A stretch of 64,000 nt of DNA from a bacterium (GCA_029977865.1 JAPOKA010000007.1:5-64004); one strand, 5' to 3'. Counted from the first letter of the stretch, positions 21,782 through 44,203 are shown. Notes: generated from the sequence alone by a model not told the origin. A program made the numbers and translations.

Positions 21782-21883
21782 GGGCAGAGAGGGTAGCGGC
21801 GTGGCGATCCGACTCGTTCGCGACGCCAGCCTCGCTCGGGCTGCGGCGACCCCGGTCCGCGTGCCGATGACTCCGCGAGTCCC

Positions 21884-22909
21884 ATGCCGGCGCCGACCTC
21901 CAAGCCCGAACCGCCCTTCGAACTGCCCGAGGGTCTTGACGCGCCCGAACTCGTGCGGGCGGCGCGGGAGTACCTGGGGTTCCTGAAGGTCGAGGCCGGA
22001 CTCAGCCGCGCCACGCTCGTGGCCTATCGCCGCGATCTCTCGGATCTCTTCGTCGATCTGGTGGAAGGGGGCCGAACCTCGCTCGCCGCGATCTCGGCCG
22101 AGGATCTCCGCGACCATCTGCGGCGGCTTGGCCGCGATCGAGGCCTCGAGCCGGTCTCGATCGCCCGGCATCTTGCCACCATCCGGACCTTCTTCCGATT
22201 CCTCTGTTCGCGGCAGCGGATCGCGGGCGATCCGGCGCGGTTGCTCGAACGTCCGACCACCTGGAAGAAGGTGCCCGGGGTGCTGACGCCCGGTGCCATG
22301 CGTCGGCTCGTCGAGATCCCATCGCCCGAGACCGGCCCGTTGTGGGTGCGCGATCGGGCCATGCTCGAACTCATGTACGCCGCGGGCCTGCGGGCGAGCG
22401 AGACCTGCGGGCTCAAGGTGAACGACTTCCACGCCACGCTTGGAAGCGTCAGCGTCATCGGCAAGGGATCGAAGCACCGCGTGGTGCCGATCGGCGAGCC
22501 GGCGATCGAGTGGACGCAGCGCTATCTCGACGAACTGCGCCCGCAGCTGGCCCGACACGAGGATCGCCGCGACGGCCATCGGCTGCTGCTCTCGGCGACC
22601 GGCCGGCCCCTCGAGCGCACCGGGCTCTGGAGAATCGTGCAGCGGCTCGCCGGCCGCTGCGGCCTCGCCGACGTGCACCCGCACACCCTGCGGCACTCCT
22701 TCGCCACCCACCTCGTCGGCGGCGGCGCCGACCTCAGAGTGGTGCAGGAACTGCTCGGGCACGCCGACATCGCCACCACCCAGATCTACACCCATGTCGA
22801 CCGCACTCAGTTGCGCGAGGTCGTCAAGGCCTGCCATCCGCGCGAGATGGCCGGCCGCATGAAGGTCGCGCGGCCCGCCCGCGGGCCCGCCGCGGATTCG
22901 GCCGCATGA
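21884..22909 (+). CDS. xerD: Tyrosine recombinase XerD
   Basis: [40 protein letters not shown] and [16 protein letters not shown] give the R-H-R-Y catalytic signature. Confidence 0.8.
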
Positions 22910-28221: not shown

Positions 28222-29769
28222 ATGCATGAACCCGACTCCCAGACTCGCGATGCCGCCGAGCACTCCGAGCGAGGCTCCGATCCGCTCTCGGTCGCGGGTC
28301 TCGACCGGGATCTCTCGCGGCGATCGGTCCGGGGCGGCGCGTTCGTCATGGCCGGCCAGGGCGGCAGCATCCTCGTGGGTATCGCCTCCGCGGCGGTGCT
28401 GGCGCGGCTGCTCGATCCCGAGGACTTCGGCCTCGTCGCGATGGCGGGCGCGTTCATCGTGCTGCTCGGCGAGTTCGCGGATCTGGGCTTGTCGCAGGCG
28501 ACCGTCCAGCGCCGCGAGGTCACCACCGCGCAGGTCAGCACGCTGTTCTGGGTGAATGTGGGTCTTGGCGCCGCGGCCATGCTGATCGGGTTCGCACTGT
28601 CGTGGCCGATCGGGCTCTTCTACGAGGATGCCCGGCTCGGACCGGTCGCGGCAGCGCTCTCGATCGGCTTCTTCTTCTCGGGCGTGGCGGCGCAGCCGCT
28701 CGCGGTGCTGCGGCGCCGCATGCGCTTCGCCGCAGAGACCACCGTCACGCTGATCTCGCTTGCGGTGGGGCTCCTCGCCGCGATCGTGGCCGCCCTGTCG
28801 GGACTGGGGTACTGGTCGCTGGTGGTGCAGACCCTCGCCACCGCGGCGACACGCATGGCGGGAATGTTCATCGCGAGCGGCTGGATGCCGTCTCGTCCGG
28901 CACGCGCCGAGGGAATTCGCGAGATCCTGCGCTTTGGCGGCTACCTCTCGGGATCGAACCTGATCGCGGCGGTGATCCGGTCGATCGACAAGATCCTCGT
29001 GGGCCGCTTCGTCGGTGCGGACGCCGCGGGCCTCTACTCGAATGCCCAGCGGATCCTGCTCGCACCGGTCACGCAACTCAACAAGCCGCTCACCATGGTG
29101 GCCCGCCCGGCGCTGGCGCGATTGCAGGACGATCCCGAACGCTTTCGCGCCTACTACCGCCGCGGCATCGAAGTGGTCGCCTCCGCGAGCCTGCCCACCA
29201 TCGCGGTCGCGGTGATCATGGCGGGCGATCTGGTGCGGGTGGTGCTCGGCCCCGGCTGGGACGGCGTGGTGCCGATCTTCATGGCGCTGGCTCCGGCAGG
29301 CCTGCTCGCGACCCTTGCCGTCATCACCACCTGGGTCTACGTGCCGCTCGGCCGCACCGACCGCCAGTTCCGCTGGATCTGCCTGCAGTCGATCGGCGTG
29401 GTGGCCGGGATGGCGATCGGATTGCGCTACGGCGCCGTCGGTGTCGCCGCGGGGTACTCGATCGCAGTGGCGTGCCTGCGTGTTCCCGCCATCGCGTGGT
29501 GCCTGAAGGGAACCTTCGTGCGTTGGTCCGATGTGGGCTCGGCGATCTGGCGGCCGCTTCTTGCGACCGCAGTTGCCGCCGCTGCGATCCTTGCGGCGGG
29601 CGGCGCCATCGCTTCGCTCGAGGCTCCGTCGGCGCGGCTTGCCATCGGTGCGTTGGCATTTGCTGCGGTCTACCTCGTGTCCTTCCTCGCCCTCCCCGGA
29701 GGCTTCGCGCGGGCTTCCGCGATCGTGGCGATGGTGCGGCATCTTCGCCCGAACCCAGGGAACCGCTGA
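28222..29769 (+). CDS. Polysaccharide biosynthesis protein, Wzx/MOP-type flippase
   Basis: About 14 TM segments. GIASAAVLARLLDPEDFGLVAM..LADLGLSQATVQR..FWVNVGLG is the pattern of lipid-linked oligosaccharide flippases. Confidence 0.8.
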   Translation: MHEPDSQTRDAAEHSERGSDPLSVAGLDRDLSRRSVRGGAFVMAGQGGSILVGIASAAVLARLLDPEDFGLVAMAGAFIVLLGEFADLGLSQATVQRREVTTAQVSTLFWVNVGLGAAAMLIGFALSWPIGLFYEDARLGPVAAALSIGFFFSGVAAQPLAVLRRRMRFAAETTVTLISLAVGLLAAIVAALSGLGYWSLVVQTLATAATRMAGMFIASGWMPSRPARAEGIREILRFGGYLSGSNLIAAVIRSIDKILVGRFVGADAAGLYSNAQRILLAPVTQLNKPLTMVARPALARLQDDPERFRAYYRRGIEVVASASLPTIAVAVIMAGDLVRVVLGPGWDGVVPIFMALAPAGLLATLAVITTWVYVPLGRTDRQFRWICLQSIGVVAGMAIGLRYGAVGVAAGYSIAVACLRVPAIAWCLKGTFVRWSDVGSAIWRPLLATAVAAAAILAAGGAIASLEAPSARLAIGALAFAAVYLVSFLALPGGFARASAIVAMVRHLRPNPGNR

Positions 29770-29801: not shown

Positions 29802-30188
29802 CTAGTGGTGCGAAGGACTTTCGGCAGTCGATGCATCCGTCCGAGTCGGGTCGCTGCCGCCTTGCTCGGCTTCGAGGATGGCCACGTGGCGAACCAGCAC
29901 GGTGAGCTCGCGGCGGACTCGCCGCAGGCGCACGTAGACCAGCAGGAATCCCCAGAAGACCGCGAGCACGAGGAGGTAGAGCAGGAGGTCGGCACCGCGA
30001 TGGATGCCCAGCGCATTGGCGACGGTGGTGACGCGATCCGGCTCGATGGCCGCCAGCCCGCCCACCACGAACGCGGCGACCCAGCAGAGTCCCGCGACAC
30101 GACCGAGGCGGCCGGCCACCACCGCCACCGTCGCGAGCGCCGCAAGCGCTGCGAAACTCGACACGAGGATCCACTGGAAGGGCGTCAT
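29802..30188 (-). CDS. DUF2304 family small membrane protein (usual GT2 partner)
   Basis: 128 aa with 4 TM segments. ALGIHRGADLLLYLLVLAVFWGFLLVYVRLRR is characteristic. It lies 12 nt downstream of the GT2 gene on the same strand. Confidence 0.75.
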   Translation of the reverse strand: MTPFQWILVSSFAALAALATVAVVAGRLGRVAGLCWVAAFVVGGLAAIEPDRVTTVANALGIHRGADLLLYLLVLAVFWGFLLVYVRLRRVRRELTVLVRHVAILEAEQGGSDPTRTDASTAESPSHH

Positions 30189-30200
30189 GGCGAACTCGGA

Positions 30201-30980
30201 CTAATCGAGGATGCGGCCGACAAGGTAGTGGAAGAGGATGCGAAATCCACCGGTCCAGCGCTGGCCCTTCTCTCGCGAGTACTCGTCGTAGCGGATATGG
30301 ACGGGAATCTCCTCGACGCGAAGTCCGCTGCGGGCGATGAGATCGATCAGCTCGCTTGCGTGAGCCATGCGGTCGGCGGTGATCTCGAGTCGCTCGGCGG
30401 CCTCGCGTGAGAAGACCCGCAGACCGTTGTGCACATCCGAGAGCTCGATGCCGCTGCAGACTCGGTGAAAGAGGACCGCCGACTTGAGCAGCAGCCGCCG
30501 GCCCGCCGGCACGTTCGAGCCGCGATCGGCGAATCGGTTTCCGAGCGCAATGTCGCAGGCACCGTCGGCCACTCGCTCGACCATGCGCTCGAGGTCGCGC
30601 ACGTCGTGCTGGCCGTCGGCGTCGAAGTGGGCGATGCGCCGGGCGCCGCGAGCGAGCGCAAATGCGGTGCCGGTCTGCAGAGCCGCCCCCTGACCGCGAT
30701 TGACGAGGTGCCTGAGCAGCCAGGTCGCATGGGGCCTCGCCGCCTCGACCGAGTCGTCGGCGGAGCCGTCATCGACGACCACCACATTGGCGAACCGACG
30801 ACGCAACCCCTTCAGGACCCGCGCGATCACCGCCGCCTCGTTGTAGAGAGGCACCACGACCCAGGTCTCCGAGTCCCGTAACTCGGTCTCGCGTGGGCAG
30901 GGAGGTTGCTGAGGGTTGACAGCCACGATTGGACGATAGCCCCGATTTCCAGAGAGTCTCCGCGGCCGGTTGGGATCCAT
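30201..30980 (-). CDS. Glycosyltransferase family 2, polyprenyl-phosphate sugar synthase-like (DPM1/GtrB/ArnC type)
   Basis: VVVPLYNEA, VVVDDGSADDS, NRGQGAALQTG, FDADGQHD. The ATG 30980 start is uncertain: in-frame GTG 30926 avoids overlap with the divergent gene, and GC3 upstream of it is low. Confidence 0.85.
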   Translation of the reverse strand: MDPNRPRRLSGNRGYRPIVAVNPQQPPCPRETELRDSETWVVVPLYNEAAVIARVLKGLRRRFANVVVVDDGSADDSVEAARPHATWLLRHLVNRGQGAALQTGTAFALARGARRIAHFDADGQHDVRDLERMVERVADGACDIALGNRFADRGSNVPAGRRLLLKSAVLFHRVCSGIELSDVHNGLRVFSREAAERLEITADRMAHASELIDLIARSGLRVEEIPVHIRYDEYSREKGQRWTGGFRILFHYLVGRILD

Positions 30981-32925
30981 GAGTCACGCCGAAACACAGC
31001 CGATACAGCCGCGCGGCGAGCGTCGGATAACCAGCGACGCCGCCGGCGCACATTGGCGACGGTGGCTGATGCTGGCGGTGTTGATCCTCGCCAACGTCGT
31101 CGCCTGGCGCAGCACTCTCGAGGGTCGATTCGTCTTCGACGACGTGGTGATCCTCGTCGAGGGCGAGAAGCGGCTCGCCGAGCCCTGGCCGTTGTCGCGG
31201 AGCCTTCGCTTCGAGCAGCGGCCCCTGACCTGGATCACCTTCGCGCTCAATCACGCTGCGGGTGGTCTCGAGCCCCGCGGCTATCGCCTGGTGAACCTCG
31301 TTCTTCACCTCGCGGCGGCGGTGCTGCTCTTCGCGGCGGTGCGCGAGGGCGTGCGCCACCGTCCGAGGCAATCCGAGCCGACCAATCCCGAACACGATTC
31401 GCGCCGGGCCGACTGGATCGCCCTCGCGACCGCGCTCTTGTGGTCGTTGCATCCACTCGCGACCTCTGCGGCCGGATACGTGGTGCAGCGTGCGGAGGTC
31501 CTGGTCGCGGTGTGGACCATGGCCGCGGCGTATGCGCTCCTGCGCAGTCTCCGCAGCAGCACGCCGGCAGCCTGGCTCGCGGCGATGTCGACTTCGGTGG
31601 TGCTGGCGATCCTCTCCAAGCCGACCGCGGTGTTCCTGCCGCCGCTCCTTCTGGTGATCGACTGGTGCTTGTCGCAAGATCGCCTCGGCTCGATCGCCGC
31701 TCGCCGCGGGTGGGCGCATGGCGTGAACTTCGCAGCGGTGCTGCTTCTCGTCCCGCTTGGCGTGATCGGCGGGCTCGCCGCCACCGATGCCGGACCCACC
31801 GGCGCCGGGATGGGAGTCGCGGGCACTTCGCCGCTCGATTACGCGCTGGTGCAGATACGCGCCATCGGCCTCTACATCGAACTCTGCTGGTGGCCGGTCG
31901 GACTGTCGATCGACCATGGCGCCTCGGCCCTGGCGCCGACGCGACTTGCCTGGATCGGCGGCGCGGCGCTTCTCGTCGCCACCTTCGCCTCGTTGGCCGG
32001 TCTGGTGGGTCGGCGGTGGTGGGGGGTGATTCCCGCGATGCTGCTTCTCTCGCTCGCGCCCTCGTCGAGCGTGGTGCCGGTCGCAGACCCGGTCGCCGAG
32101 CATCGCATGTACCTGCCCCTGATCGCGGTGACGCTTGCGGTCTCGTGCGGCATGGCTGCGTTGGTATCTGCGCTTGGTCGCGGCAGCCCGGCGCGAGGCC
32201 GGGTGGCGGCGGTGTCGGCGATCGCGGCGCTGGCGGCGGTGGCGACCGCGGAGGGGATTCGAACCCACCGCCGCTGCGGCGACTATGCGCAACCGGCCGC
32301 GCTGTGGAGCGAGGTGCTCGACCGCCGGCCCGATGATCTGAGAGCGCTCTTGAATCGCTCGCAGGCCTTGATCGAAGCGGGTGACCCCGAAGCCGCGGAG
32401 GCGGACCTCGAACGGGTGCAGCGGCTCGCACCCGGCGATCCGCGGGTACTGCTCAATCGCGCCATCCTCGAGATCGAGTCCGGCGACGCGGAGTCGGCGC
32501 TGCCGCGCATCGAACTCGCGATCGCGGCCTTCCCGCGCCTCGCCGCCGGCCACGCTGCCCGGGGCGATGCGCTGCGGATGCTCGGGCGACCGCTCGAGGC
32601 GATCGAGAGCTATCGCCGCGCCGAACGCTGGCGGCCGACCGAGCCTCTGCTGCCGCTCTCCCGTGGCAATGCCCTTGCCGAACTTGGAAGCCTCGACGAG
32701 GCCGCGGCGGCCTTTGCACTCGCAGCGAAGCTCGCCGACGCAGCCGGCGAACCGTCGGTGGCGGCGAGCGGGTGGTTCAATCTCGGCAACATGCACTTCA
32801 TCGCCGAGCGCTACCTCGAGTCCGTGGCCGCCTACGACGAGGCACTTGCCCGCGAGCCGGACCACGCCGAGGCGCAGCATTGGCGGGCGGAGGCGTCGGC
32901 GCTTGCCGAGGGAGCGTCGCCGTGA
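30979..32925 (+). CDS. GT-C-like membrane glycosyltransferase (TMTC/DUF1736-like) with C-terminal TPR repeats
   Basis: ATG 30979 (the track used TTG 30970). FVFDDVVIL, QRPLTWITFALNHAAGGLEPRGYRLVNLVLHLAAAVLLF and AEHRMYLPLI, with about 11-12 TM segments. TPR units follow (LIEAGDPEAAEADLERV, GRPLEAIESYRRA, ERYLESVAAYDEAL). Confidence 0.8.
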   Translation: MSHAETQPIQPRGERRITSDAAGAHWRRWLMLAVLILANVVAWRSTLEGRFVFDDVVILVEGEKRLAEPWPLSRSLRFEQRPLTWITFALNHAAGGLEPRGYRLVNLVLHLAAAVLLFAAVREGVRHRPRQSEPTNPEHDSRRADWIALATALLWSLHPLATSAAGYVVQRAEVLVAVWTMAAAYALLRSLRSSTPAAWLAAMSTSVVLAILSKPTAVFLPPLLLVIDWCLSQDRLGSIAARRGWAHGVNFAAVLLLVPLGVIGGLAATDAGPTGAGMGVAGTSPLDYALVQIRAIGLYIELCWWPVGLSIDHGASALAPTRLAWIGGAALLVATFASLAGLVGRRWWGVIPAMLLLSLAPSSSVVPVADPVAEHRMYLPLIAVTLAVSCGMAALVSALGRGSPARGRVAAVSAIAALAAVATAEGIRTHRRCGDYAQPAALWSEVLDRRPDDLRALLNRSQALIEAGDPEAAEADLERVQRLAPGDPRVLLNRAILEIESGDAESALPRIELAIAAFPRLAAGHAARGDALRMLGRPLEAIESYRRAERWRPTEPLLPLSRGNALAELGSLDEAAAAFALAAKLADAAGEPSVAASGWFNLGNMHFIAERYLESVAAYDEALAREPDHAEAQHWRAEASALAEGASP

Positions 32926-34001
32926 CCGCGGTCCGCGATGTGACCCTGGTGATTCCCGCTCGTGACGCCATGCGAACGATCGAGCGCTGCCTCGATGCGG
33001 CGATCGCGGTTCGCGACCGAACCGGTTCGCGGCTGGCGCGGATCCTGCTTGTCGACGACGGCTCGCGCGACGGGACTGCGGCAGCCGCGGCGGCTCGGGG
33101 GATCGAGGTGCTGAGCGGTTCGGGCAGCGGTCCGGGTGCCGCAAGGAACCTCGGATGGCGGGCGGCGACGACGCCACTGGTGTGGTTCGTCGACAGCGAC
33201 TGCGTGTGCGAGCCGGAGTCGCTTGAGCGGCTTCTTCCGCATCTTCTCGATCCGCAGGTCGCCGGCGTGTCGGGCACCTATTCGATTGCGAACGACGCCT
33301 CGCTTCTCGAGCGGCTGATCCACGAGGAGATCATGGTGCGGCATGCCCGCATGCCCGAGGAGACGGACTTCCTCGCGACCTACGACGTCGTCTATCGCCG
33401 CGAAGTGCTCGAGGCGCTTCAAGGCTTCGACGAGCGCTATCTCAAGGGCCAGGACGCGGAACTGGCGTTTCGCGTGCTCGAGGCGGGCCATCGCCTGCGC
33501 TTCGAACGCGGTTCGCGGGTGATGCACTTCCATGCCGATCGGCTTTCGCGATACCTCAAGGTCCAGCGGCAGCAGGGGTACTGGCGGGTGGCGCTGCACC
33601 TCGCGCATCCCGGCCGCGGCAGCAACCGCTACAGCGGCACGCTCGACCACCTGCAGCCGTTCGTCGCGGCAGCGGTGGGGCCGGCGGTGATCGCGGCGAT
33701 CGTGATGACGATCTGGTTCGATGCGGTTCGCGGCAGCGCGAATGATGGCGTCGCGTGGTTGTCGCCGCTGACGGGGTGGATCCTGCCGGCCGCGCTGGTT
33801 GCGATGCTCCTCTTGATGCAGCTGCCGATGGCGCTCGCGATGGTGCGCCGTGCGGGCAGTGAGATGGTGTGGTTCGTGCCGCTTGGAGCGATTCGGGCGT
33901 GCTGGCGTGCGATGGGCCTCGTGCAGGGCGTTGCCGATCGAATGCTCGGCCGCGGCGCGATTTCGGCGAAGGCCCTCCCCCAAGCCGGAGGAACCGCCTG
34001 A
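32922..34001 (+). CDS. Glycosyltransferase family 2 with C-terminal TM segments
   Basis: GTG 32922 overlaps the upstream stop (GTGA). LVIPARD, LLVDDGSRDGT, FVDSDC, QRQQGYWRV, then TM helices (PFVAAAVGPAVIAAIVMTIWF; ILPAALVAMLLLMQLPMALAMV). Confidence 0.85.
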   Translation: MTAVRDVTLVIPARDAMRTIERCLDAAIAVRDRTGSRLARILLVDDGSRDGTAAAAAARGIEVLSGSGSGPGAARNLGWRAATTPLVWFVDSDCVCEPESLERLLPHLLDPQVAGVSGTYSIANDASLLERLIHEEIMVRHARMPEETDFLATYDVVYRREVLEALQGFDERYLKGQDAELAFRVLEAGHRLRFERGSRVMHFHADRLSRYLKVQRQQGYWRVALHLAHPGRGSNRYSGTLDHLQPFVAAAVGPAVIAAIVMTIWFDAVRGSANDGVAWLSPLTGWILPAALVAMLLLMQLPMALAMVRRAGSEMVWFVPLGAIRACWRAMGLVQGVADRMLGRGAISAKALPQAGGTA

Positions 34002-36709
34002 TGGAGGTTCCCTTCGCGAACTCGGACCTCGCGACCCTGCTGCCGACCGCCTTCTGGTTGCTGCTGCTCCTTCCGGGCTGGGCGTTGGCGCGGCGGCTCG
34101 CGCCACGCGACCTCGAGGGTCCGCTGATCGCCTCGGTCGCGGTCGCCTACACCACGCTCCTTGCCTGTCTCGCGCCGCTGGTGGCGCTGGGCTATCTCCT
34201 GTCTCTGCCGGTCTGGATCCTGTCGGCGTTGCTCGGTGCCGCGATCCTCTGGGGCGGCTTCGACGCGGTGCGGGCGGGCCGCTGGCGCCGGTTGGGAGGC
34301 GTGCTGCTCGCTGCAGCGTGCCTCGAGATGCTGGTGGTGGTGGCGGACATGTGGCTCTCGCAGCGCACCGGCGCGATGTTGGGGGCCGATGCGCGGATCC
34401 ACATCACTCGCGTTCGCTTCCTCTACGAGCATGGGCTCTCGAATCTCGATCCCTTCGTCGAAGCCCGCTATCCCTATCCGATCTACCACACGAACCTGTG
34501 GCACGCGCTGCTCGCGTCGGGGTCTCGGCTGCTCGCGATCGATCCGCTCGCGATGTGGTTCGGATCACTGGCCGCGAGCAAGCTGATGATCGCCTCGGGA
34601 CTCGCCTACCTTGCGTGGGCGACTCTCGGCGGACGCTGGCCGGCGTGGGTCGCGGCGGTGATGGTGATCGCGATCCGCGGACCGACCACCTTCTCGCTCT
34701 ATCCCAACCAGTTGGCGCCGTGGTTCCTGATTCCGGTCCTGGCGGGAGTCCTGATCCGCGCCGTCGCGCCCGGACGAGAGGAAGCGGTCGAGGCTCAGCC
34801 TCGCAAGGCGCCCGGTGCGCTTGAGACGGGTCTTCGCGTGGCTGCGGTTGCGGTGGTGGTGGGGATGTTCCATCCGCTCTACGCGGGCTTCGCACTCGTC
34901 GCCTTTGCGCCGGTGATGGGGTTGGCGGCGGTGGTCGCGTGGTGGCGTGTGCGCTCGAACTCCGCCGAGGATCGCAGTCGATCGGCGTCGATGGCGGTGG
35001 TGGCTCTGGTGGTCGCATCGTTGCCGATGCCCTTGGTGACGCAGATGTGGACGGCGCCATGGATCGAGGTGAACTCGCCGGAGCGCCGAGCCCAGATCCG
35101 CGCAGCCGAACGAGCCGGCGATCCGCTTTCGGGGCGCATTCCGCGGCGAGGCGAGGAGTGGATGCATCCGGCGCCCGATCGCGGATCGGCCGGGGAGGTC
35201 GTCATTTCGCCCGATTCGCTGCTCGAGGTTCCCGACGATGCGGGTACGGAAATGCCTCTCCTCGACGACGAGCCGGAGGAGTCGGACGAGGTCGATTCCG
35301 GCGAAGGAGCCGAGACGCCGCCCCTTGGGATCGAAAGGGCGCCGGGTTTCACGGTCTTCGAAGGAACGACCATCGCCCGCACGCCGGGACGAGGATTCAC
35401 CGGCGGATGGTGGCGGGTCTGGTCCATGCTGCTCGCGATGGCGGTGGTGATCGTGGTGCGGCGGCGGGTGGCGCCGCTCGTGCTGGTGGGATTCATCGCG
35501 ACGGTGCTTGCGGTCATGCTGGTGCCGGCCTTGTGCACGCGGGCGCTGCGGGTGCTGGGATCGCTGTGGATGCTGCAGCGATTCGAGACCCTCGCGGATG
35601 TCCTGTGGATCGCGGTCTCGGCGCCGGCGGTGGCGGCGGCGCTCGAGCCGCTCGTGCGGTGGCGGTGGTTGCAGTCGCCGCTGTCCATGCTGGCGATTCC
35701 GCTCGCGCTGCAGCATGGCCACTTCTCGGCTCCATACGACTGGGCCGGCTATCGCCAGCGGGCCGAAGCGCCGACGGATCAGCGATTCGGTCGCGAGTTT
35801 CGCCAGCTCGCGCGATTGCAGGTTGCCCTGCAGCGGTTCCTGCCCGAGGGCGCGGTGGTGGTGGCGGACCCCTCGATCGGCGATCGCCTGACCATGCTCC
35901 ACGATGTGCGGCTCGTGGCGAGCCAGCGGTCGAGCACCGGCGTCACCTTCATGCGACAGCGGACGAGAGATGTGGGGCTCATGCTCGACGGCAAGACGCG
36001 CGAGGGCCTTCGCACCGAGCTCTTCGATCGCTACGGGGCCACCCATCTGGTCGAACGCGGAGCGCTTCGCGGCTGGGTCGAGCTCTGGGCCCGGAACCGC
36101 GCCCACTGGGGCGGGTACGCGTTCGTCGAACTCGCCGAGGAGCCGGACTGGAGTCGCGTCGCCTGGAAGAGGGTGCGCGATGCGGAGCGGCTGATGCGTC
36201 GGGGCAGGCACGAGAGTGCTCGGCCGATGCTCGAGGCGGCCTTGGCGGAGATCGACCAAACCGATCCGGGCGCCGATCTGGTGTGGTTCAGGCTCGGCAA
36301 TGCGCGGTTGTGGACCGGAGATCCGCAGGCCGCCCGCGTGGCCTACGAGCGGGCGATATCGATTCGCGACGACGATCCTCGATTCCAGATCATGCTCGGC
36401 AATGCCCTTGTCGAGGTCGGCGAGGTCGAAGCCTCGCTCGAACGCTTCGAGATCGCCGCGACGGTGGCGCTCGCAGAGGACGATCCTTCGCTCGCGGCGA
36501 GTTCTCTGTTCAACCTCGGCAATTCGCAGTTCAGGCTTGGGCGTTGGAACGACGCCATCGCCGCCTATGAGCGCGCGCTGGCCCTGCAGCCGCTGCATCC
36601 GCAGGCCCGGTACTGGCGCGAGGAGGCGCAGCGGGAGATCGCCTTCGAGAATGCCGACTCCGCACTGCCCGAGTCGGACTCCGAGGCCACCGCACCCGAC
36701 GATCAGTGA
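34001..36709 (+). CDS. Large multi-pass membrane protein (902 aa) with an acidic linker and C-terminal TPR module; family unknown
   Basis: ATG 34001 overlaps the upstream stop (TGATG). At least 10 TM segments in two blocks, separated by DDEPEESDEVDSGEGAE. The C-terminal TPR FNLGNSQFRLGRWNDAIAAYERALALQPLHPQARYWREEA parallels the tail of 30979..32925. Confidence 0.75.
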   Translation: MEVPFANSDLATLLPTAFWLLLLLPGWALARRLAPRDLEGPLIASVAVAYTTLLACLAPLVALGYLLSLPVWILSALLGAAILWGGFDAVRAGRWRRLGGVLLAAACLEMLVVVADMWLSQRTGAMLGADARIHITRVRFLYEHGLSNLDPFVEARYPYPIYHTNLWHALLASGSRLLAIDPLAMWFGSLAASKLMIASGLAYLAWATLGGRWPAWVAAVMVIAIRGPTTFSLYPNQLAPWFLIPVLAGVLIRAVAPGREEAVEAQPRKAPGALETGLRVAAVAVVVGMFHPLYAGFALVAFAPVMGLAAVVAWWRVRSNSAEDRSRSASMAVVALVVASLPMPLVTQMWTAPWIEVNSPERRAQIRAAERAGDPLSGRIPRRGEEWMHPAPDRGSAGEVVISPDSLLEVPDDAGTEMPLLDDEPEESDEVDSGEGAETPPLGIERAPGFTVFEGTTIARTPGRGFTGGWWRVWSMLLAMAVVIVVRRRVAPLVLVGFIATVLAVMLVPALCTRALRVLGSLWMLQRFETLADVLWIAVSAPAVAAALEPLVRWRWLQSPLSMLAIPLALQHGHFSAPYDWAGYRQRAEAPTDQRFGREFRQLARLQVALQRFLPEGAVVVADPSIGDRLTMLHDVRLVASQRSSTGVTFMRQRTRDVGLMLDGKTREGLRTELFDRYGATHLVERGALRGWVELWARNRAHWGGYAFVELAEEPDWSRVAWKRVRDAERLMRRGRHESARPMLEAALAEIDQTDPGADLVWFRLGNARLWTGDPQAARVAYERAISIRDDDPRFQIMLGNALVEVGEVEASLERFEIAATVALAEDDPSLAASSLFNLGNSQFRLGRWNDAIAAYERALALQPLHPQARYWREEAQREIAFENADSALPESDSEATAPDDQ

Positions 36710-37692
36710 TCGCTTCGAGCGGGTCGCCCGCCGCGGCTTGGCGCGCAGACGCCCTCGACGAGACCGAACCCGTAGGCGATCCAGCGTCGTCCCCGGACTC
36801 GCATCGCGGTGCCACCGAGGATGCCTGCGATGGCGGTCGCGCCGCCGAGGGGAATCCACACCGCGGCCTTGCAGAGACAGACCAGGTTCGCCCGCAACGG
36901 ACCGTGGAGGTCGCGCTCGATCAGCGGCACGCACCGGCCGACCGTGCGAAGCCGCGAGACCAGCCAAGCGGCGGTGGTCCGGCGAGGATCGATCGACTCG
37001 ATCACCACGGCGTCGTTCGCCCACGCGATGCGGGCACCCGATCGGGCCAGCCGGGCGAAGAAGTGGCGATCCTCGCCGAGCCGGAGGAAGGAGTCGTCGA
37101 ACCAGCGATCGAGGCGGGAAAGCAGCGCCGCGTCGAAGAGGATGTTGTTGGTGAAGGCCCACGGCCGAGTGGTGCCGGTCGGGAAGGACTGTCGCGCGAA
37201 GAACCCGCCTCTCGCGACCCACCGCGGCGGCGCCTCTTCGAAGCGCGGCTCGACGGGTCCGGTGACGATGTCTGCGCGGTGTTCTCGCTTCACCTTGAGG
37301 AGTTCGGCCAGCCAGCCCGCGGGCGCGATCTCGTCGTCGTCGATGAATCCGATGAGTCCGCGGTCTCCCACGATCTCGCGGGCGACGGCGAGGCCGCGGT
37401 TTCGTGGCGGTGCGATGCCGCGCTGTGGTTCGTCGTGCACCGCCACCGCCATGCCGGTCCGCTCGGCCACCGCGATCGCGGCCTGCCGAGGCGCCGGGTC
37501 CTGTGGGTCGTTGTTGACGACGACTGCGCAGAGCAGGAACGGATCCGCCGCAGACGGCTGTTGCTGCGCGAGGCTCTCGAGCGTGCGGGCGAGGCCCTCC
37601 GCGCGATGAAGGGTCGAGATCGAGATCGCGATCCGCACCGGACCGGTTCCGGCGTGTCGCTCGTTCGGGGCGTGATCGAGCTCAGCCGCCAT
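36703..37692 (-). CDS. Glycosyltransferase family 2
   Basis: Track ORF trimmed to ATG 37692. VRIAISISTLHRAEGLARTLESL, FIDDDE, GEDRHFFARLARSGARI. Paralog of the gene immediately upstream. Confidence 0.8.
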   Translation of the reverse strand: MAAELDHAPNERHAGTGPVRIAISISTLHRAEGLARTLESLAQQQPSAADPFLLCAVVVNNDPQDPAPRQAAIAVAERTGMAVAVHDEPQRGIAPPRNRGLAVAREIVGDRGLIGFIDDDEIAPAGWLAELLKVKREHRADIVTGPVEPRFEEAPPRWVARGGFFARQSFPTGTTRPWAFTNNILFDAALLSRLDRWFDDSFLRLGEDRHFFARLARSGARIAWANDAVVIESIDPRRTTAAWLVSRLRTVGRCVPLIERDLHGPLRANLVCLCKAAVWIPLGGATAIAGILGGTAMRVRGRRWIAYGFGLVEGVCAPSRGGRPARSDH

Positions 37693-38626
37693 GGTGGGTT
37701 CGATACTCCTCGTGCTGCGCGAGGCCAAGGGCGCCGGCGGCGAGGCCACGGGCCTTGGCAAGATCCTGCAGGCACGCAACCGCGGCGCCGCTCAGGCCGC
37801 GACGGGCGAGTCCGGTGATGAATCGGAACGGCCCCCGCAGGAGATAGCGGAAGGCGAGCCAGAGCAGTCCGGTCCTTCCTCGCTCGCCGAGGTCGCGGGC
37901 GATCCAGGCATCGGTGGCGCCGATGCGGTAGGCCCGCTGCCTCGCCCAGGCGATCGTCAGCCGACTCGCGGGAGTCCATTCGCGACAGATCGCCTCGCGG
38001 CACCACACGATTCGACCTCCCGCGCGTGCGAGCCGCGAGAAGAAGTGGGTATCGCTGCCGCCGGTCATGGCGAGGCGTTCATCGAAGCGAAGGTTCAACC
38101 GACGAATCGCCTCGGTGCGGACCAGCACGTTGTGGGTGAAGGCGGTCGGCCGCGCCGTGCCGGTCGGGAAGTCGAGGCAGTCGAATGCGCCGCTGCCGTG
38201 GGCCCAACCCGGCAGGGTGGCGTCACGCTCGAAGGCGGCGAGGGCGGGACCGGTCACCGCGTCGGCGGCGGTGTGGGAAAGGGTCGCCACGAGTTCCCGA
38301 AGCCACGACGGATCGGCGGTCTCGTCGTCGTCGATGAACGCCACCGCGTCGACCGAGGAGTCTCCCTCGCCTGCGAGCGCCAACTCGAGCACGCGATTGC
38401 GTGCCGCCGGGATGCCGAGCCTCGGCTCGAAGCAGCGTGTCAAGGGAAGCGAGCAGGGCGGCATCGAGCCGATTCCCGGCGGATCGTCGTTCTCGACGAG
38501 CAGCACTTCGACTTCGAGGTTTTCGGACCTTGGCCCGGCTGCGAGTTCGAGGTGCCCGAGCGATTCGAGCAGCCTCGCGAGTCCTTGCGGACGTCGCCGG
38601 GTGATCACGCCGATTGCGATCCGCAT
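37682..38626 (-). CDS. Glycosyltransferase family 2
   Basis: MRIAIGVITRRRPQGLARLLESL, FIDDDE, GGSDTHFFSRLARAGGRI. The stop overlaps the next GT2 start by 11 nt. Confidence 0.8.
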   Translation of the reverse strand: MRIAIGVITRRRPQGLARLLESLGHLELAAGPRSENLEVEVLLVENDDPPGIGSMPPCSLPLTRCFEPRLGIPAARNRVLELALAGEGDSSVDAVAFIDDDETADPSWLRELVATLSHTAADAVTGPALAAFERDATLPGWAHGSGAFDCLDFPTGTARPTAFTHNVLVRTEAIRRLNLRFDERLAMTGGSDTHFFSRLARAGGRIVWCREAICREWTPASRLTIAWARQRAYRIGATDAWIARDLGERGRTGLLWLAFRYLLRGPFRFITGLARRGLSGAAVACLQDLAKARGLAAGALGLAQHEEYRTHHGG

Positions 38627-38683: not shown

Positions 38684-39844
38684 ATGGATCAGACGCTGAA
38701 CAGTCGCGCCTCACCGTCGCCTCCGCGGCTCTCGGTGGTGCTGCCCACCTGTGATCGGCGCGAGCAGACGATTCGTTGCGTGCAATCGCTGCTCGCCCAG
38801 TCGATCGCAGCGCGGTCGGGTGAGCTCGAGATCGTCGTGGTCGACGATGGCTCCGCCGATGGCACCGCCGAGGCGATCGAGTCGCTCGCCGAGACGAGCC
38901 CAGTGGCGGTGCGGGTGCTCCGCAATCCGAAGAACCTCGGCGCGAATGCCAGCCGCAACCGTGGCGTGCAGGTGGCGCGGGGACCGTTGATCGCCTTCCT
39001 CGATTCCGACTGCGAGGCGGACCCCGACTGGCTCGAGCGGCTTGCGGCAGTGTTCGACGATCGCCGGGTCGGCGCAGCCTCGGGACTGGTCGAGGACCTC
39101 TGCCGCGGCAATCTCTGGGAACTCGCCTTCTGCGGCACCCATCGGCTTCCCAGACGCGGGGACGCCTCACGCTTCACCTCCTGCAATCTCTGTGTTCGTC
39201 GCGAGCTGCTCGCAGCGCATGCCTGGGAGGAGGACTTCTCGAACGCCGCGGTCACCGAGAGCGGACGTGCCGACACCAGCTTCTCGGGCCGCTGCGACGA
39301 AGAAGGCCTCTATCTCGCGATTCGGGCGGCCGGGTGGAGCGTGGTGGCCGAACCGTCAGCGCGGCTCGTCCATCGGCATCCCTATACGGCGCGGAGCTTC
39401 CTGCGGCAGGCCTGGCACGGCGGACGCGCCGCCGCCGAACTGGTGTGGAAGTTCAGGCTGCGCGATCGGCTCGATGTGGCGCCCTTCGCGCTGACGGCAC
39501 TCGCGGCGCTGGCAGCGATTGCCTTGGCGCTGCTGCTCGAGCCGCCGTGGTCTGCATGGACCTGGCTCCTTCCCTTGCCTCCGCTTGCCGCCGGGATCGC
39601 CGCGGTCTGCTGGAACGAGACCGCCAACAAGGGAAAGTCGTGGTTTGAACTCCTCCGCACGGCACCGGCGCTGGCGATCTACTACTTCCTGCGGACCGGC
39701 GGCTACTGCCTCCGACGCATCGGGCTGTGGTGCGGACGAGGCTCGATCCGCCGCATCGCGCCCGGCTCGCTCGGCCGCACCATGCCCAAGCCGCCAGCAC
39801 CTCCGACGATTCCCGCCACCGCCTGCGCGGGGGCCTCGCCATGA
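38684..39844 (+). CDS. Glycosyltransferase family 2 with C-terminal TM segments
   Basis: C-terminal part of track ORF 37691..39844, starting at ATG 38684. LSVVLPTCDR, VVVDDGSADGT, FLDSDC, LRQAWHGG, then TM helices. Confidence 0.8.
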   Translation: MDQTLNSRASPSPPRLSVVLPTCDRREQTIRCVQSLLAQSIAARSGELEIVVVDDGSADGTAEAIESLAETSPVAVRVLRNPKNLGANASRNRGVQVARGPLIAFLDSDCEADPDWLERLAAVFDDRRVGAASGLVEDLCRGNLWELAFCGTHRLPRRGDASRFTSCNLCVRRELLAAHAWEEDFSNAAVTESGRADTSFSGRCDEEGLYLAIRAAGWSVVAEPSARLVHRHPYTARSFLRQAWHGGRAAAELVWKFRLRDRLDVAPFALTALAALAAIALALLLEPPWSAWTWLLPLPPLAAGIAAVCWNETANKGKSWFELLRTAPALAIYYFLRTGGYCLRRIGLWCGRGSIRRIAPGSLGRTMPKPPAPPTIPATACAGASP

Positions 39845-40704
39845 GCGGGCCGCGATCGTGGTCGCTGCCGCGCGATGGCGGCATGTACCCGCCACCGCCT
39901 CCGCCGGGCTCGGCGGGTTGGGCCTTGCGAGCGGCGCGACGCCGTGTCGCGGACGCCTCTCGCCGCGCCGCTGCCGCCGGAGTGCTGCGGCCGGGCAGGC
40001 TGCCGTCCTTTCTCGGCATCGGAGCGCAGAAGTCCGGCACCACCTGGCTGCACGCGAACCTCTCTGCGCATCCGGAGATATTCCTGCCCGAAGCGAAGGA
40101 GCTTCACTGGCTCGACTGGAACTGGCATCGGACGCCGCGAGCCTACGCACGCTGGTTCGAGGCAGCGGGTGATCGCCTCGCCGGCGAGATCACGCCGGCC
40201 TATGCGATCGCCGATTCCGCGCGGATTCGCGCTGCCGTCGCGGTCCTGCCGGAAGTTCGCGCGATCTACCTCGTGCGCGATCCGGTCGAGCGAGCCTGGT
40301 CGCAGGCGGTCATGAACCTCCACCGCCACGGCGAGGTCGCTCCCGACGAGGCGACGCTGCTCGAGCATCTCGCGAGCGAGCCGGTCCTCGCCCGCAGCCG
40401 CCACAGCAGCGCCATCGACCGCTGGTCCGAAGCGATCGGCCAAGAGCGGCTGCTCATCGGGTTCTTCGAGGAGGTCGGCTCGGACCCCGAGGGCCTGCTG
40501 CGGCGAACACTGCGGTTTCTCGGCGTCGATCCCGATCCCGAGGTCGAGTTCCCGCTGCGGAGGGTGGTGAATCGCGGCGACGGGGTCGAGATGCCCGAGG
40601 CCGCCCGCCGACTGCTGGTCGATCGGCTCGCCGACGAGCTGATCGAACTGGAACGCCGCTTCGGCGAGCCAGCCGCCGGATGGCGGGCAAGGTGGTGCCC
40701 ATGA
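39841..40704 (+). CDS. Sulfotransferase (PAPS-dependent type)
   Basis: The ATG overlaps the upstream stop (ATGA at 39841). 5'-PSB-like GAQKSGTTWL and 3'-PB-like YLVRDPVERAWS. 287 aa. Confidence 0.8.
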   Translation: MSGPRSWSLPRDGGMYPPPPPPGSAGWALRAARRRVADASRRAAAAGVLRPGRLPSFLGIGAQKSGTTWLHANLSAHPEIFLPEAKELHWLDWNWHRTPRAYARWFEAAGDRLAGEITPAYAIADSARIRAAVAVLPEVRAIYLVRDPVERAWSQAVMNLHRHGEVAPDEATLLEHLASEPVLARSRHSSAIDRWSEAIGQERLLIGFFEEVGSDPEGLLRRTLRFLGVDPDPEVEFPLRRVVNRGDGVEMPEAARRLLVDRLADELIELERRFGEPAAGWRARWCP

Positions 40705-41564
40705 GCGAGCCGACCCCGGGACTTCGGCTGCGGCTCTATCGGATCCGCGAGTCGCTTCGCGATTCGTGGCAGGCTCTGCGGGCGCAGCCCCACGAGGATC
40801 CCGTCTTCGTGCTCGGCACGCAGAAGTCGGGGACCTCCGCGATCGCAGGGCTGTTGGGTATCGCTACCGGCCTTCCCGCAGCGATCGATCTGAAGCGCGA
40901 CCTCGACTACGCCCGGGCGCCGGAGGTCGCGGAGGGACGGCGTCCGTTCTCGGCATTCCTCCGCCGCCACGCGGCCGCGTTTGCCTGCCCGATCGTGAAG
41001 GAACCCAACCTCACCTTTCTGGTGTCGTTCCTGCTTGGGCGCTGGCCGCAGGCGCGGCTGGTGTTCGTGGTGCGAGATCCGGTGCAGACGGTCCGCAGCG
41101 TGCTCGACCGACTTGGACTTCCGGGCGAGCTCGATCGGCTCGAGCCATCTCGCCTCGAGGGTCTTCCGCGGAGTTGGTCCGCGGTGCTCGACAGCCGTTG
41201 GTGTGAGCACGCCATCGCCGGTGGAGATCCCGATCGACCGCTGTTTCACCCGGTCGAGGAGCTCGCGCGGCGTTGGCGGATTGCGCGTGAAGTCGCCCGC
41301 TCGACGCAGCAGGCCCGACCCGATCGCACGCACCTGATCGAGTACGAGCGCTTCCGCGTCGCCAAGGAGGCGTCGATCGCGGCGCTCGCGGTGCAGTTGG
41401 GACTCGAGGTTCGTGATCGCGACGGTCTCGCGGCAGCGGTCGATCGGCCCTTCCAGCCGCCTGGCGCTGCGGCCGCGATGCCTCCGGCTCGCTTCTTCGG
41501 CCCGAACCTCGAGCGGCTCATCTCCGCCGCAGGGCTCGACGCCGAGTCGGAGCCGCTGCCATGA
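40701..41564 (+). CDS. Sulfotransferase (PAPS-dependent type), second copy
   Basis: ATGA overlap at 40701. GTQKSGTSAI and FVVRDPVQTVRSV. 287 aa. Confidence 0.75.
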   Translation: MSEPTPGLRLRLYRIRESLRDSWQALRAQPHEDPVFVLGTQKSGTSAIAGLLGIATGLPAAIDLKRDLDYARAPEVAEGRRPFSAFLRRHAAAFACPIVKEPNLTFLVSFLLGRWPQARLVFVVRDPVQTVRSVLDRLGLPGELDRLEPSRLEGLPRSWSAVLDSRWCEHAIAGGDPDRPLFHPVEELARRWRIAREVARSTQQARPDRTHLIEYERFRVAKEASIAALAVQLGLEVRDRDGLAAAVDRPFQPPGAAAAMPPARFFGPNLERLISAAGLDAESEPLP

Positions 41565-42784
41565 AGGTGCTGGTCGTCACCGGTGGATTCCCGCTCGCCT
41601 CGGAGACCTTCGTCCGTGCCCAGTGCAGCGGACTGCTGGCCGCTGGATGCGATGTCGAGGTCCTGGCCCTGCGACCCGGGGACGGCAGCGACTTCGACGA
41701 GCAGGAACGAAGCCTCGGCTTGCCCGCGCGGGTGCGGGCGGCGAGCCTCGACCGCCCGCTCGCTGCGAGGCTCCTCCGAGCGCCGCTGCGGGCTGGACGC
41801 ATCGGACTGCAGTCCCCTGCCGCGGCGTGGAAGTCGGTGTCGCCCTGGTCGGGATGGCGGGCCTCGAGCGGTCGGCTGCTCGAGGCGTTTGCGGCGCTTG
41901 GCGATGGAGCGATCCCGCGGCGATACGACATCGTCCATGCCCAGTTCGGGCCGAGCGGCATCGTGGCCAGCGAGCTTCGCCGCGCCGGGCTGATCACCGG
42001 CCGGTTGAGCGTTGCGTTCTACGGCTACGACATCACCCGAGAGCCACGGCTGCGCGGTTCGGCCATGTACGAGCGGATGTTCGAAGACGCGGAGTGGATC
42101 CTGCCCAACTCCGCCTATCTCGCGGGCCTGCTGCGCGAGGCAGGCGCTCCGGCGGAGAAGGTCTCGGTGCACCGGCTCGGCATCGACACCGATCGCTTTC
42201 CCTTCTGCGACCGCAGCGGCCGCGACGAGTCCGGTCCATGGCGCGTGGTGGCGGTGGGGCGGATGGTCGAGAAGAAGGGATTCGAGTTTCTGATTCGGGC
42301 AATCGCCCGTCTCGGTGACCTGCCGAACTTGAAGGCGACGATCGTGGGCGATGGACCGTTGCGACCGGAGCTGGCGCGACTGGCCGAGGACCTCGCGGTC
42401 GGGGATCGAATCGAGCTGCCCGGCTGGCTCGACCACGCGGAGGTCGGTGCGGTGCTGTCCGGGGCCGACTGCTTTGCGGCGCCGAGCGTGGTGGCAGCCG
42501 ACGGGGACATGGAGGGGCTTCCCCTGGTGGTGGTCGAAGCGATGGCGACCGGACTTCCGGTGGTCGGCACCCGCCACAGCGGGATTCCGGAGGCGGTTCG
42601 GCCCGAGGTCAATGGACTGCTCGTCGAGGAACGAGATGTGGAAGGGCTGGCCGAAGCCCTCAGAGGGCTGGCGAGCCCTCTGACGCGGCTGAAATGGGGT
42701 CGAGAGTCGAGGGCGATCGCGGAGCGTGACTTCTCGCATCCGAGGTTGATTGATCAACTACTGAAGCGGTGGTCAGTGGTCTGA
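41561..42784 (+). CDS. Glycosyltransferase family 4 (GT-B, group 1)
   Basis: ATGA overlap at 41561. MKVLVVTGGFPLASETF, GRMVEKKGF, EGLPLVVVEAMATGLPVVGTRHSGIPE (EX7E). Confidence 0.85.
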   Translation: MKVLVVTGGFPLASETFVRAQCSGLLAAGCDVEVLALRPGDGSDFDEQERSLGLPARVRAASLDRPLAARLLRAPLRAGRIGLQSPAAAWKSVSPWSGWRASSGRLLEAFAALGDGAIPRRYDIVHAQFGPSGIVASELRRAGLITGRLSVAFYGYDITREPRLRGSAMYERMFEDAEWILPNSAYLAGLLREAGAPAEKVSVHRLGIDTDRFPFCDRSGRDESGPWRVVAVGRMVEKKGFEFLIRAIARLGDLPNLKATIVGDGPLRPELARLAEDLAVGDRIELPGWLDHAEVGAVLSGADCFAAPSVVAADGDMEGLPLVVVEAMATGLPVVGTRHSGIPEAVRPEVNGLLVEERDVEGLAEALRGLASPLTRLKWGRESRAIAERDFSHPRLIDQLLKRWSVV

Positions 42785-42996
42785 GGCGATCGCGGGGCGG
42801 GACCGGGGCGTACGCATTCCGAAGAAACGGCAGAGATTTCGTTTCTGCGGCTTGCCGCCCGGGAATCAGGCGTTAGGTTTCATGCTGGAAATTTGATTCC
42901 CTCCGTCGCGAGCCCCTCCTGTCTGCAGAGGCTGGTGGCGGCGGAGGGGATCTTCGGTCATCGCACCCCCCGTCCGCGGGGAAGAAAGGTCTGCTC

Positions 42997-43965: not shown

Positions 43966-43989
43966 TCCGCTCGTCCGTCTCGATCTCCC

Positions 43990-44022
43990 GAAAGGCCGGC
44001 TCCGCCGGCCTTTCGTATTTTT
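43990..44022 (+). terminator. Rho-independent terminator
   Basis: gaaaggccggc/tcc/gccggcctttc forms an 11-bp GC-rich stem, followed by gtattttt, 25 nt after the stop at 43965. Confidence 0.8.
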
Positions 44023-44203
44023 GCCCGCGTCCCCCCGGGGTGAAGTCGAGGCGATTGCGGCGGGTCTGGGGAGAAAGTGGGGGATCCGCCGAACCATCGA
44101 CGCGGACTCTCGGAAGTGCCGAGGGGAATCTCGGTCCGCCGATGTAGTCTTACCGTCTTCGGCGATGCCTTCGATTCGGCACCGAATCTCTCAGGAGCGT
44201 CTC

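Follow-up and report, generated by a model that had tools for sequence, protein, structure and literature searches.

A putative polyprenyl-phosphate-sugar glycosylation pathway with a TMTC-like, TPR-bearing GT-C protein in a planctomycete of the class Phycisphaerae

The putative transferase and putative lipid-sugar synthase

The window analysed here is a whole 64-kb contig stretch (GCA_029977865.1 JAPOKA010000007.1:5-64004, ~69% G+C) from the 3.0-Mb, 97% complete genome of a planctomycete of the class Phycisphaerae; the nearest named relatives of its proteins are from the Phycisphaerales (Planctomycetota). At positions 29802-32925 it carries a family 2 glycosyltransferase (GT2) and a DUF2304 protein on the minus strand and, divergently on the plus strand, a membrane protein ending in tetratricopeptide (TPR) repeats. 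We consider it probable that these genes encode a polyprenyl-monophosphate-sugar glycosylation pathway in which a TMTC-like GT-C protein with a TPR tail serves as the periplasmic transferase. Streptococci, lactococci and mycobacteria provide precedents for the logic of such a pathway, and its unstudied part is the family of TMTC-like TPR transferases. A first-pass annotation of this DNA had placed all three genes of the divergent arrangement, and the motifs it quoted, correctly. Its remark that bacterial members are essentially uncharacterised holds for the TMTC-like TPR-bearing GT-C type, but the GT2/DUF2304/GT-C logic itself was worked out in GacIJKL, WpsAB...J and PpgS/Rv3632/Rv3779.

In the proposed mechanism, the soluble GT2 would be held at the cytoplasmic face and activated by the DUF2304 protein with its three transmembrane (TM) segments, and would move a sugar from a uridine diphosphate (UDP) sugar onto undecaprenyl or polyprenyl phosphate, as expected from the families of the two proteins. 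Since the characterised GacI, WpsA and PpgS use UDP-N-acetylglucosamine (UDP-GlcNAc) or UDP-N-acetylgalactosamine (UDP-GalNAc), the sugar is by analogy most likely an N-acetylhexosamine (HexNAc). The lipid-linked glycan would then be flipped, for which the adjacent Wzx protein is the obvious candidate. The GT-C protein would bind the lipid-phosphate donor via its DD loop, K217 and the E377-x-R379-x-Y381 loop and transfer the glycan to a periplasmic acceptor, possibly presented through the TPR domain. No test made here indicated mannose as the sugar or a protein as the acceptor, and the putative HexNAc-type (PpgS/GacI) synthase argues against mannose.

The plus-strand open reading frame (ORF; 651 or 648 residues, from 30970 or 30979 to 32925) consists of a GT-C membrane domain followed by TPR repeats. 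The membrane domain (30979-32289) was assigned to GT-C from the AlphaFold2 (AF2) model, Foldseek matches and invariant alignment columns, and the C-terminal TPR domain (32290-32925) comprises 12 helices in ~6 repeats (TPR_2 7.4e-18, TPR_16 and others). The full-length AF2 model was of high quality, with a predicted local distance difference test (pLDDT) of 91.4 and a predicted TM-score (pTM) of 0.91. It showed 11 TM helices followed by TPR helices at residues 442-646, so that the earlier count of about 12 TM segments was right in describing a polytopic membrane protein and one too high. Numbered on the 651-residue ORF, the motifs FVFDD (54-58, nucleotides 31129-31143), LVNLVLHLAAAVLLF (107-121) and EHRMYLP (377-383, nucleotides 32098-32118) were all present ahead of the TPR repeats, as first described. 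The TPR domain is predicted to be periplasmic, because it follows the 11th, odd-numbered TM helix and because this agrees with canonical GT-C topology.

A fold search with the full-length protein returned TPR proteins only. Since full-length searches of PDB sequences, too, were swamped by TPR proteins, the membrane domain was re-modelled alone (residues 1-425, pLDDT 80.7). Foldseek comparison of this model with the PDB gave GT-C or GT-C-like proteins for all of the top 18 matches (probability 0.90-1.00), among them ArnT, Pmt4, PIG-U, AftB (TM-score 0.53), Pmt1/Pmt2, AglB, EmbB and ALG3. The E-values were modest, from 2.9e-3 for the top match, ArnT 5ezm, and the TM-scores were 0.35-0.53. At the sequence level, Pfam gave zero matches to residues 1-427 even at E=10, the TPR models alone matching the full protein, and a profile of 22 homologous membrane domains had no match among PDB sequences. 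When the 22 homologs were searched individually, PMT_2 was found in 4 (best 8e-8) and TMTC_DUF1736 (PF08409) in one at E=0.19, while PMT, TMEM260 and PIG-U each matched a single homolog weakly. Overall, a GT-C fold for the plus-strand protein is supported by the modelled structure.

Most of the residues expected at the active site were conserved. D57 and D58 of FVFDD were invariant in the 22 homologs and conserved at ≥90% in 48; together with the fold matches, this agrees with the earlier prediction of a GT-C fold with an acidic first-loop motif. Further family-invariant residues are R84, P85, N109, H113, W158, H161, P162, R174, E176, K217, P224, Y291, Y302, P309, P364, P370 and R379. The TMTC motifs described by Eisenhaber et al. 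2021 include DD, SHKSYRP, RxD, KE(T/Q)xxT, DW and ERxxY (PMC7801869), and our comparison covered M1-M5 and M7 of that scheme. The DD, RP, RxE, K, D and ExRxY positions of the family were invariant or nearly so and correspond at least in part to these six motifs. In the window protein, the DD of M1 is present, M2 is reduced to RP (R84-P85), M3 reads R174-A-E176, M4 reads K217-P with the Glu missing, M5 reads D315-H, and M7 reads E377-H-R379-M-Y381 with a shifted spacing. N109/H113 and H161-P162 are other conserved residues of the window protein.

Because of the fold matches and the TMTC-motif residues, we read the plus-strand protein, as modelled, as a GT-C enzyme that follows the TMTC layout, with predicted catalysis. 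The earlier label of a TMTC/DUF1736-like GT-C protein with TPR stands as to the GT-C fold, the 11 TM helices and the TPR tail, but not as to DUF1736 or PMT_2: since the membrane domain has no Pfam match, "DUF1736-like" is no database fact for this protein. It is TMTC-like and falls short of a demonstrated TMTC member, because the DUF1736 match is absent, the KE glutamate is lost and the adjoining synthase is putatively of the HexNAc type. For the animal TMTC proteins themselves, the 2021 sequence analysis records no direct demonstration of transferase activity (PMC7801869).

The family is large. The membrane-domain profile matched 102,596 cluster representatives (50% identity) at an E-value of up to 1e-3 and 23,092 at up to 1e-30, and within the literature searched there was no paper on a bacterial member of this GT-C/TPR family. 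Annotations of homologs read "TPR protein" or, in the case of JGI, "protein O-mannosyl-transferase". In the source genome the family is represented by a single copy, with two other PMT_2 proteins elsewhere.

The GT2 (30201-30980, minus strand; PF00535 5.7e-23) is a soluble protein without a TM segment in the TM scan, and is a putative polyprenyl-phosphate sugar synthase of the PpgS/GacI/WpsA type. Its top NCBIfam match was the PpgS polyprenyl-P-GalNAc synthase model (4.2e-68, 229 bits, profile positions 2-223 of 226), followed by AglJ (9e-20), dolichyl-P-hexose transferase (1.5e-12, 47 bits) and ArnC (9e-7, 28 bits). The first-pass description of a DPM1/GtrB-like GT2 was thus correct in the GT2 family only: the PpgS model gave a much better score, and the protein lacks the C-terminal TM helices that GtrB and ArnC typically have. 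Since 229 bits is below the PpgS equivalog cut-off of 370 bits, the sugar was left unassigned at this level. The nearest PDB relatives were the P. furiosus dolichyl-phosphate mannose synthase 5mlz (2.7e-9) and ArnC, and the sequence carries the DxD-type motifs DDGS and DAD. No close paralog of the GT2 was found in the source genome, where the PpgS-like GT2 is single copy.

The DUF2304 gene (29802-30188, minus strand, 128 residues; PF10066 2.6e-15, 57 bits against a cut-off of 25.5) begins 13 nucleotides past the GT2 stop codon on the same strand and is also single copy in the genome. The family assignment of the first-pass annotation was confirmed, but in place of four TM segments the TM scan gave three hydrophobic segments and an amphipathic C-terminal helix. 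GacJ and WpsB, which belong with Rv3632 to the same family of small membrane proteins, have been described in the same way (10.1101/180810; PMC10821137). From GacJ and WpsB, the DUF2304 protein is presumed to be the activator and membrane anchor of the GT2.

The ATG of the GT-C gene and the ATG of the GT2 ORF overlap in the palindrome CATG at 30978-30981. In orthologs, the spacer between the two starts is 106-131 nucleotides, and therefore at least one of the starts at CATG is probably internal. The true GT2 start is likely the GTG at 30926, which would give 241 residues, since GT2 orthologs have 241-247.

GT2/DUF2304 pairs of this type have been proven elsewhere to make polyprenyl-monophosphate-HexNAc (10.1101/180810; PMC10821137; PMC3485146), which supports the donor-synthase role first proposed for the pair. 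GacI makes GlcNAc-P-undecaprenol, and bound GacJ lowers the Km for undecaprenyl phosphate and raises the Vmax (10.1101/180810). PpgS/Rv3632 make polyprenyl-P-GalNAc, the user of which is the GT-C protein Rv3779 (PMC3485146; 10.1101/2022.05.16.492151). Lactococcal WpsA/WpsB make GlcNAc-P-C55, and cytoplasmic glycosyltransferases (GTs) extend the product, the extension having been shown in vitro (PMC10821137). By analogy, the window pair fits with GacI/J, WpsA/B and PpgS/Rv3632, which also suggests the identity of the sugar.

Linkage across genomes and a change in the active site

The divergent GT2-DUF2304/GT-C-TPR layout was also observed in the three closest metagenomic relatives (loci L001, L002 and L004), at 40-56% identity. 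In a sample of 151 Phycisphaerae genomes searched for the GT-C family, DUF2304 and the GT2/DUF2304 pair, the GT-C family occurred in 84 genomes, with up to 13 paralogs in one genome, and DUF2304 in 52, nearly always as one copy. Twelve genomes had an orthologous pair (≥290 bits), and a head-to-head GT-C/TPR gene was present in seven of them, from four families (f1, f7, f16 and f19), consistent with the earlier view of the divergent arrangement and extending it to several Phycisphaerae lineages. The other five had no family GT-C within 10 kb, the distance used to judge adjacency, and therefore the adjacency is frequent and not obligatory. The source genome has one member of the GT-C family, one DUF2304 gene and one PpgS-like GT2, all located together. 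Opitutales/Verrucomicrobia carry distant homologs with no adjacent synthase, including tandem PMT_2+TPR paralogs, so the triad is a trait of a subgroup and not of the family. The subgroup with an adjacent synthase provides a concrete and testable donor hypothesis, especially in a small genome with one synthase and one GT-C protein.

In three loci (L070-72) the three genes stand alone amid housekeeping genes, with no other GTs detected nearby; the three genes can therefore form a minimal unit of their own. A second, distant GT-C/TPR paralog with the motifs WDDD, ERK and K-T lies 4-5 kb from these stand-alone triads (L070:14308-16593, L071:3637-5880 and L072:3786-6032). The same paralog type is the best family match in genomes G148 and G078, and may likewise draw on the donor of the triad.

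Two unrelated genomes with a lone pair carry a VanZ-domain membrane protein of 494-569 residues directly upstream of it (L066:6007-7716 and L069:6374-7858). In L069, a TIR-domain gene lies directly downstream of the lone GT2/DUF2304 pair.

In the GT-C tree, the linked rows form two strongly supported clades, of four and three rows, plus three other rows, with five changes on the tree. The window protein belongs to the four-member clade, which has a long stem. A single clade of linked GT-C proteins was thus not recovered; the backbone is unresolved and one origin is possible.

Ten synthase-linked GT-C proteins were compared with 30 unlinked paralogs. The Glu after the invariant Lys (KE motif) was absent in all ten linked proteins, which have K-P, K-Q, K-S or K-A. 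The Glu of the HPLxT-E turn is likewise missing from them, and a one-residue deletion and an Asp precede their AEHRMY loop. Unlinked paralogs have K-E in 23 cases and a non-Glu residue in seven (Fisher p=2e-5 against the linked set, uncorrected for shared ancestry), and three of these seven are from genomes whose synthase pair stands alone. Since the KE Glu in TMTC models is a proposed metal ligand beside the donor phosphate (PMC7801869), the change may reflect a different donor. The correlated loss marks residues that may set donor choice.

The surrounding locus and alternative readings

The triad had been proposed to be possibly self-contained, which does not hold for the window, where it sits inside a conserved ~15-kb glycan locus. 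Besides the triad, this locus encodes a Wzx flippase, six further GTs and two sulfotransferases, along with another membrane protein that carries TPR repeats; the block is kept in L001/L078, L002/L077 and L004 and partly in L073-75. The Wzx/MOP-family flippase (28222-29769, plus strand, 515 residues; Polysacc_synt_3 5.3e-81, NCBIfam MOP flippase 2.8e-62) has homologs in L002, L073 and L067. It is contiguous with the DUF2304, GT2 and GT-C genes, so that all parts of a four-component system are side by side, and the same set was found in L002 and L073.

Downstream of the GT-C gene and translationally coupled to it is a membrane-anchored GT2 with two C-terminal TM helices in the TM scan (32922-34001, plus strand; PF00535 6.9e-23). 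No other gene accompanies the GT2/DUF2304 pair as constantly: this membrane GT2 was found beside the pair in nine of 15 loci (the window, L001, L002, L004, L067, L068, L073, L074 and L075). The next gene (34001-36709, plus strand) encodes a 902-residue polytopic membrane protein with a TPR tail; it is DUF6541-like, one ortholog matching DUF6541 at 9.2e-14, and has a strongly conserved loop, GADARIHITRVRF..HGLSNLDPF..YPYPIYHTNLWH. A search for literature on this protein type found none. As a second member of the GT-C family it was rejected at the sequence level (hhalign probability 1% against the GT-C profile). Because it co-occurs with the pair in L067, where the GT-C protein is absent, it is a candidate second periplasmic transferase and user of the lipid-linked glycan; it may also be a polymerase.

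The remainder of the locus consists of two tandem GT2 genes (36703-37779 and 37682-38626, minus strand; PF00535, Glyco_trans_2_3), a second membrane GT2 (38684-39844, plus strand; PF00535 5.7e-32), two sulfotransferases (39841-40704 and 40701-41564, plus strand; Sulfotransfer_3 1.7e-16 and 3.2e-11, Sulfotransfer_1 4e-12) and a GT4 glycosyltransferase (41561-42784, plus strand; Glyco_trans_1_4 2.9e-35). A phosphoglycosyl-transferase initiator (PF02397 or PF00953) was found neither on the 64-kb contig nor in the 15 syntenic loci. In Planctomycetota, the locus is a candidate for making sulfated surface glycans with no need of a classical initiating enzyme.

Within the pathway we favour, two variants were considered. 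A single sugar could be attached as a side branch, in the way of GacL and Rv3779 (variant a), or the lipid-linked sugar could be extended in the cytoplasm by the GT2/GT4 proteins and sulfotransferases of the locus, flipped by Wzx and transferred as a block (variant b). The stand-alone triads favour variant (a). The missing local initiator and the constant membrane-GT2 partner favour variant (b), which is weakened by the six phosphoglycosyl-transferase homologs elsewhere in the genome (two Bac_transf and four Glycos_transf_4), since these could initiate the locus glycan. For the haloarchaeal AglB, block transfer of a lipid-primed oligosaccharide has reportedly been shown. The glycan-rich context favours a glycan as acceptor, whereas a protein acceptor would fit the TMTC plan and the conserved pilin-like and dockerin-like neighbours.

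Several points weigh against the proposed pathway. All steps proposed for this organism are predictions from sequence and models, the GT-C protein has no Pfam match and modest Foldseek statistics (E ~3e-3 and modest TM-scores), and the GT2 scores under the PpgS equivalog cut-off. Five of the 12 pairs have no family GT-C nearby, the two other PMT_2 proteins of the genome could use the same donor, and the six remote initiator homologs are possible starters of the locus glycan. Without the KE glutamate, catalysis could be changed or abolished. Finally, a blind prediction that every non-KE member would adjoin a GT2/DUF2304 pair failed: P0096, a K-A member, is not adjacent to one, and therefore the KE substitution accompanies linkage without predicting it.

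A possible though doubtful alternative, in effect a stricter version of variant (b), is that the GT2/DUF2304 pair initiates the glycan of the whole locus, with the GT-C/TPR protein as its final ligase or oligosaccharyltransferase. The GT2/GT4 proteins and the two sulfotransferases would build a sulfated oligosaccharide on the polyprenyl monophosphate, Wzx would flip it and the 902-residue protein might polymerise it. This would account for the lack of an initiator on the contig and in the 15 loci, and the locus has all other parts, namely a flippase, six GTs, two sulfotransferases and two polytopic TPR proteins. The membrane GT2 accompanies the pair in nine of 15 loci, two of them without the GT-C protein (L067 and L068), and the second-best NCBIfam match of the soluble GT2 is AglJ, the starter of a dolichyl-phosphate (Dol-P)-linked glycan. 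Lactococcal WpsA/B-WpsC...WpsG-WpsJ is a direct precedent, where block transfer has been proposed for WpsJ, but the role of WpsJ is itself still a model (PMC10821137). Initiators are also present at remote sites, and the L070-72 triads have no other GTs detected nearby, and therefore at least some triads work with the bare lipid-phosphate-sugar.

Protein O-glycosylation in the manner of TMTC, PMT or TfpW, with an exported protein acceptor recognised by the TPR domain, appears unlikely. The TMTC-like motifs and the plan of 11 TM helices plus TPR are in its favour, as are two genes downstream of the GT4. The first (42997-43965, plus strand) encodes a secreted protein of 322 residues with a dockerin-like C-terminus (weak Dockerin_1 match, 4.8e-4), which is 57% identical to L077:7475-8455 and present in L078. 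Its C-terminal module of ~50 residues was found at more than 40 sites in the 3-Mb genome by tblastn, with four full-length paralogs, and may serve the organism widely as a tag for sorting or surface anchoring. The second (44204-45196, plus strand) encodes a prepilin-type protein of 330 residues with eight Cys and a GFTLTE class III signal (N_methyl 5.4e-7), and no recognisable domain besides N_methyl. It is 71% identical to L077:10686-11690, present in L078 and without a paralog in the genome. Among the locus proteins compared pairwise it is the most conserved, the GT-C protein being 53-56% identical to its closest homologs. Both genes stay by the locus in these two relatives, although L077 is rearranged, and a prepilin-type gene also adjoins the unlinked paralog P0096. 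The prepilin-type protein is a speculative candidate for a protein acceptor, and the dockerin-like protein one for an acceptor or an associated surface protein.

On the other hand, the window and L078 are collinear well past the locus, so that conservation of the pilin-like and dockerin-like genes may reflect mere relatedness. No prepilin-type gene was found near the linked GT-C genes in L070-L075, TPR domains occur in polysaccharide-export machinery too, and glycan-building enzymes dominate the context. A pilin-like neighbour as a general feature was rejected, being limited to the window clade and one unlinked paralog. The gene beside P0096 (L076:7510-7845) is a small prepilin-type (N_methyl) gene directly downstream of, and convergent with, this PMT_2-positive paralog. 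In the window, the G+C content dips to 0.65-0.66 at 42000-46000, over the dockerin-like and pilin-like genes, compared with ~0.69-0.70 in the flanks.

It is improbable that the pair and the GT-C protein have no donor-user relation, the pair serving cytoplasmic extension or another transferase (the 902-residue protein or the two PMT_2 proteins) and the GT-C/TPR protein using a housekeeping lipid-sugar or acting as a non-catalytic scaffold. The five orthologous pairs without an adjacent family GT-C would fit this, as would the L067 pair, which has the membrane GT2, Wzx and a protein of the 902-residue type and no GT-C protein, the missing KE glutamate of the window clade, and the lack of a dedicated synthase in most family members, including the Opitutales tandem arrays. 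Against it, the head-to-head layout recurs in at least three well-separated GT-C lineages, the KE change correlates with linkage, and the genome has exactly one such synthase and one such GT-C protein, which are adjacent. The invariant DD, K, D and ExRxY positions argue for catalysis.

A bacterial TMTC-type O-oligosaccharyltransferase, by which a sulfated glycan primed by GT2/DUF2304 on polyprenyl monophosphate with no part for a phosphoglycosyl-transferase, completed in the cytoplasm and flipped by Wzx would be transferred as a block onto a dedicated envelope protein (the single-copy pilin-like protein or dockerin-tagged surface proteins being the candidates), is very improbable; if true, it would parallel the haloarchaeal Dol-P pathway in bacteria and assign a donor and an acceptor for the first time in a family of ~100,000 sequence clusters.

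Comparison with known systems and a further observation

The proposed pathway can be compared with GacI/J/K/L of S. pyogenes, which adds the GlcNAc side chain of the group A carbohydrate. As proposed for the window, a soluble GT2 lipid-phosphate-HexNAc synthase is encoded with DUF2304 directly downstream, and the locus has a Wzx-type flippase and an external polytopic GT-C protein (10.1101/180810). GacK is the flippase, and GacL transfers GlcNAc outside the membrane (10.1101/180810). GacL differs from the window protein in lacking a TPR domain and a TMTC-like character, and works in a Gram-positive host on polyrhamnose as acceptor, whereas in the window the GT-C gene is divergently transcribed and the locus has sulfotransferases.

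WpsA/B..G..J of Lactococcus, which builds the pellicle polysaccharide (PSP) on C55-P, likewise combines a GT2+DUF2304 pair with cytoplasmic GTs, Wzx and GT-C proteins. The PSP pathway lacks a dedicated phosphoglycosyl-transferase initiator, and WpsA/WpsB fill this role (PMC10821137). The window differs in its sulfotransferases, its TPR tails and a GT-C protein of a different family, and in the window extension of the primer would be a putative step. PpgS (Rv3631)/Rv3632/Rv3779 of M. tuberculosis, with homologs in Corynebacterium glutamicum, provides the best NCBIfam match of the GT2 and likewise has a DUF2304 partner. A wall glycan receives the sugar from Rv3779 (PMC3485146; 10.1101/2022.05.16.492151), whose gene, in contrast to the window GT-C gene, lies far from ppgS and encodes no TPR domain.

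Animal TMTC1-4, which are classed as protein O-mannosyltransferases, share with the window protein 11 TM helices, an extracytoplasmic C-terminal TPR domain and the DD, xRP, RxE/D, K, D and ExRxY residues (PMC7801869). The window protein differs from them in having no DUF1736 match, a Pro in place of the M4 Glu and a synthase of the putative HexNAc type instead of the DPM1 type. ArnC/ArnT and GtrA/B/C of Gram-negative bacteria also make a lipid-phosphate-sugar inside and transfer it in the periplasm by a GT-C protein, and ArnT was the top structural match. However, ArnC and GtrB have C-terminal TM helices of their own and no DUF2304 partner, and ArnT and GtrC lack TPR repeats. Haloarchaeal AglJ...AglB, in which a GT2 starts on a monophosphate lipid and cytoplasmic extension, flipping and GT-C transfer follow, resembles the block-transfer variant and is relevant to that variant only, being archaeal and N-linked with an STT3-type GT-C protein.

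The remaining genes of the window are housekeeping genes. A tyrosine recombinase (21797-22909, plus strand; Phage_integrase with a SAM-like N-terminal domain) lies upstream of a pcp-ggt run, and may be XerC/D-like or a mobile-element marker.

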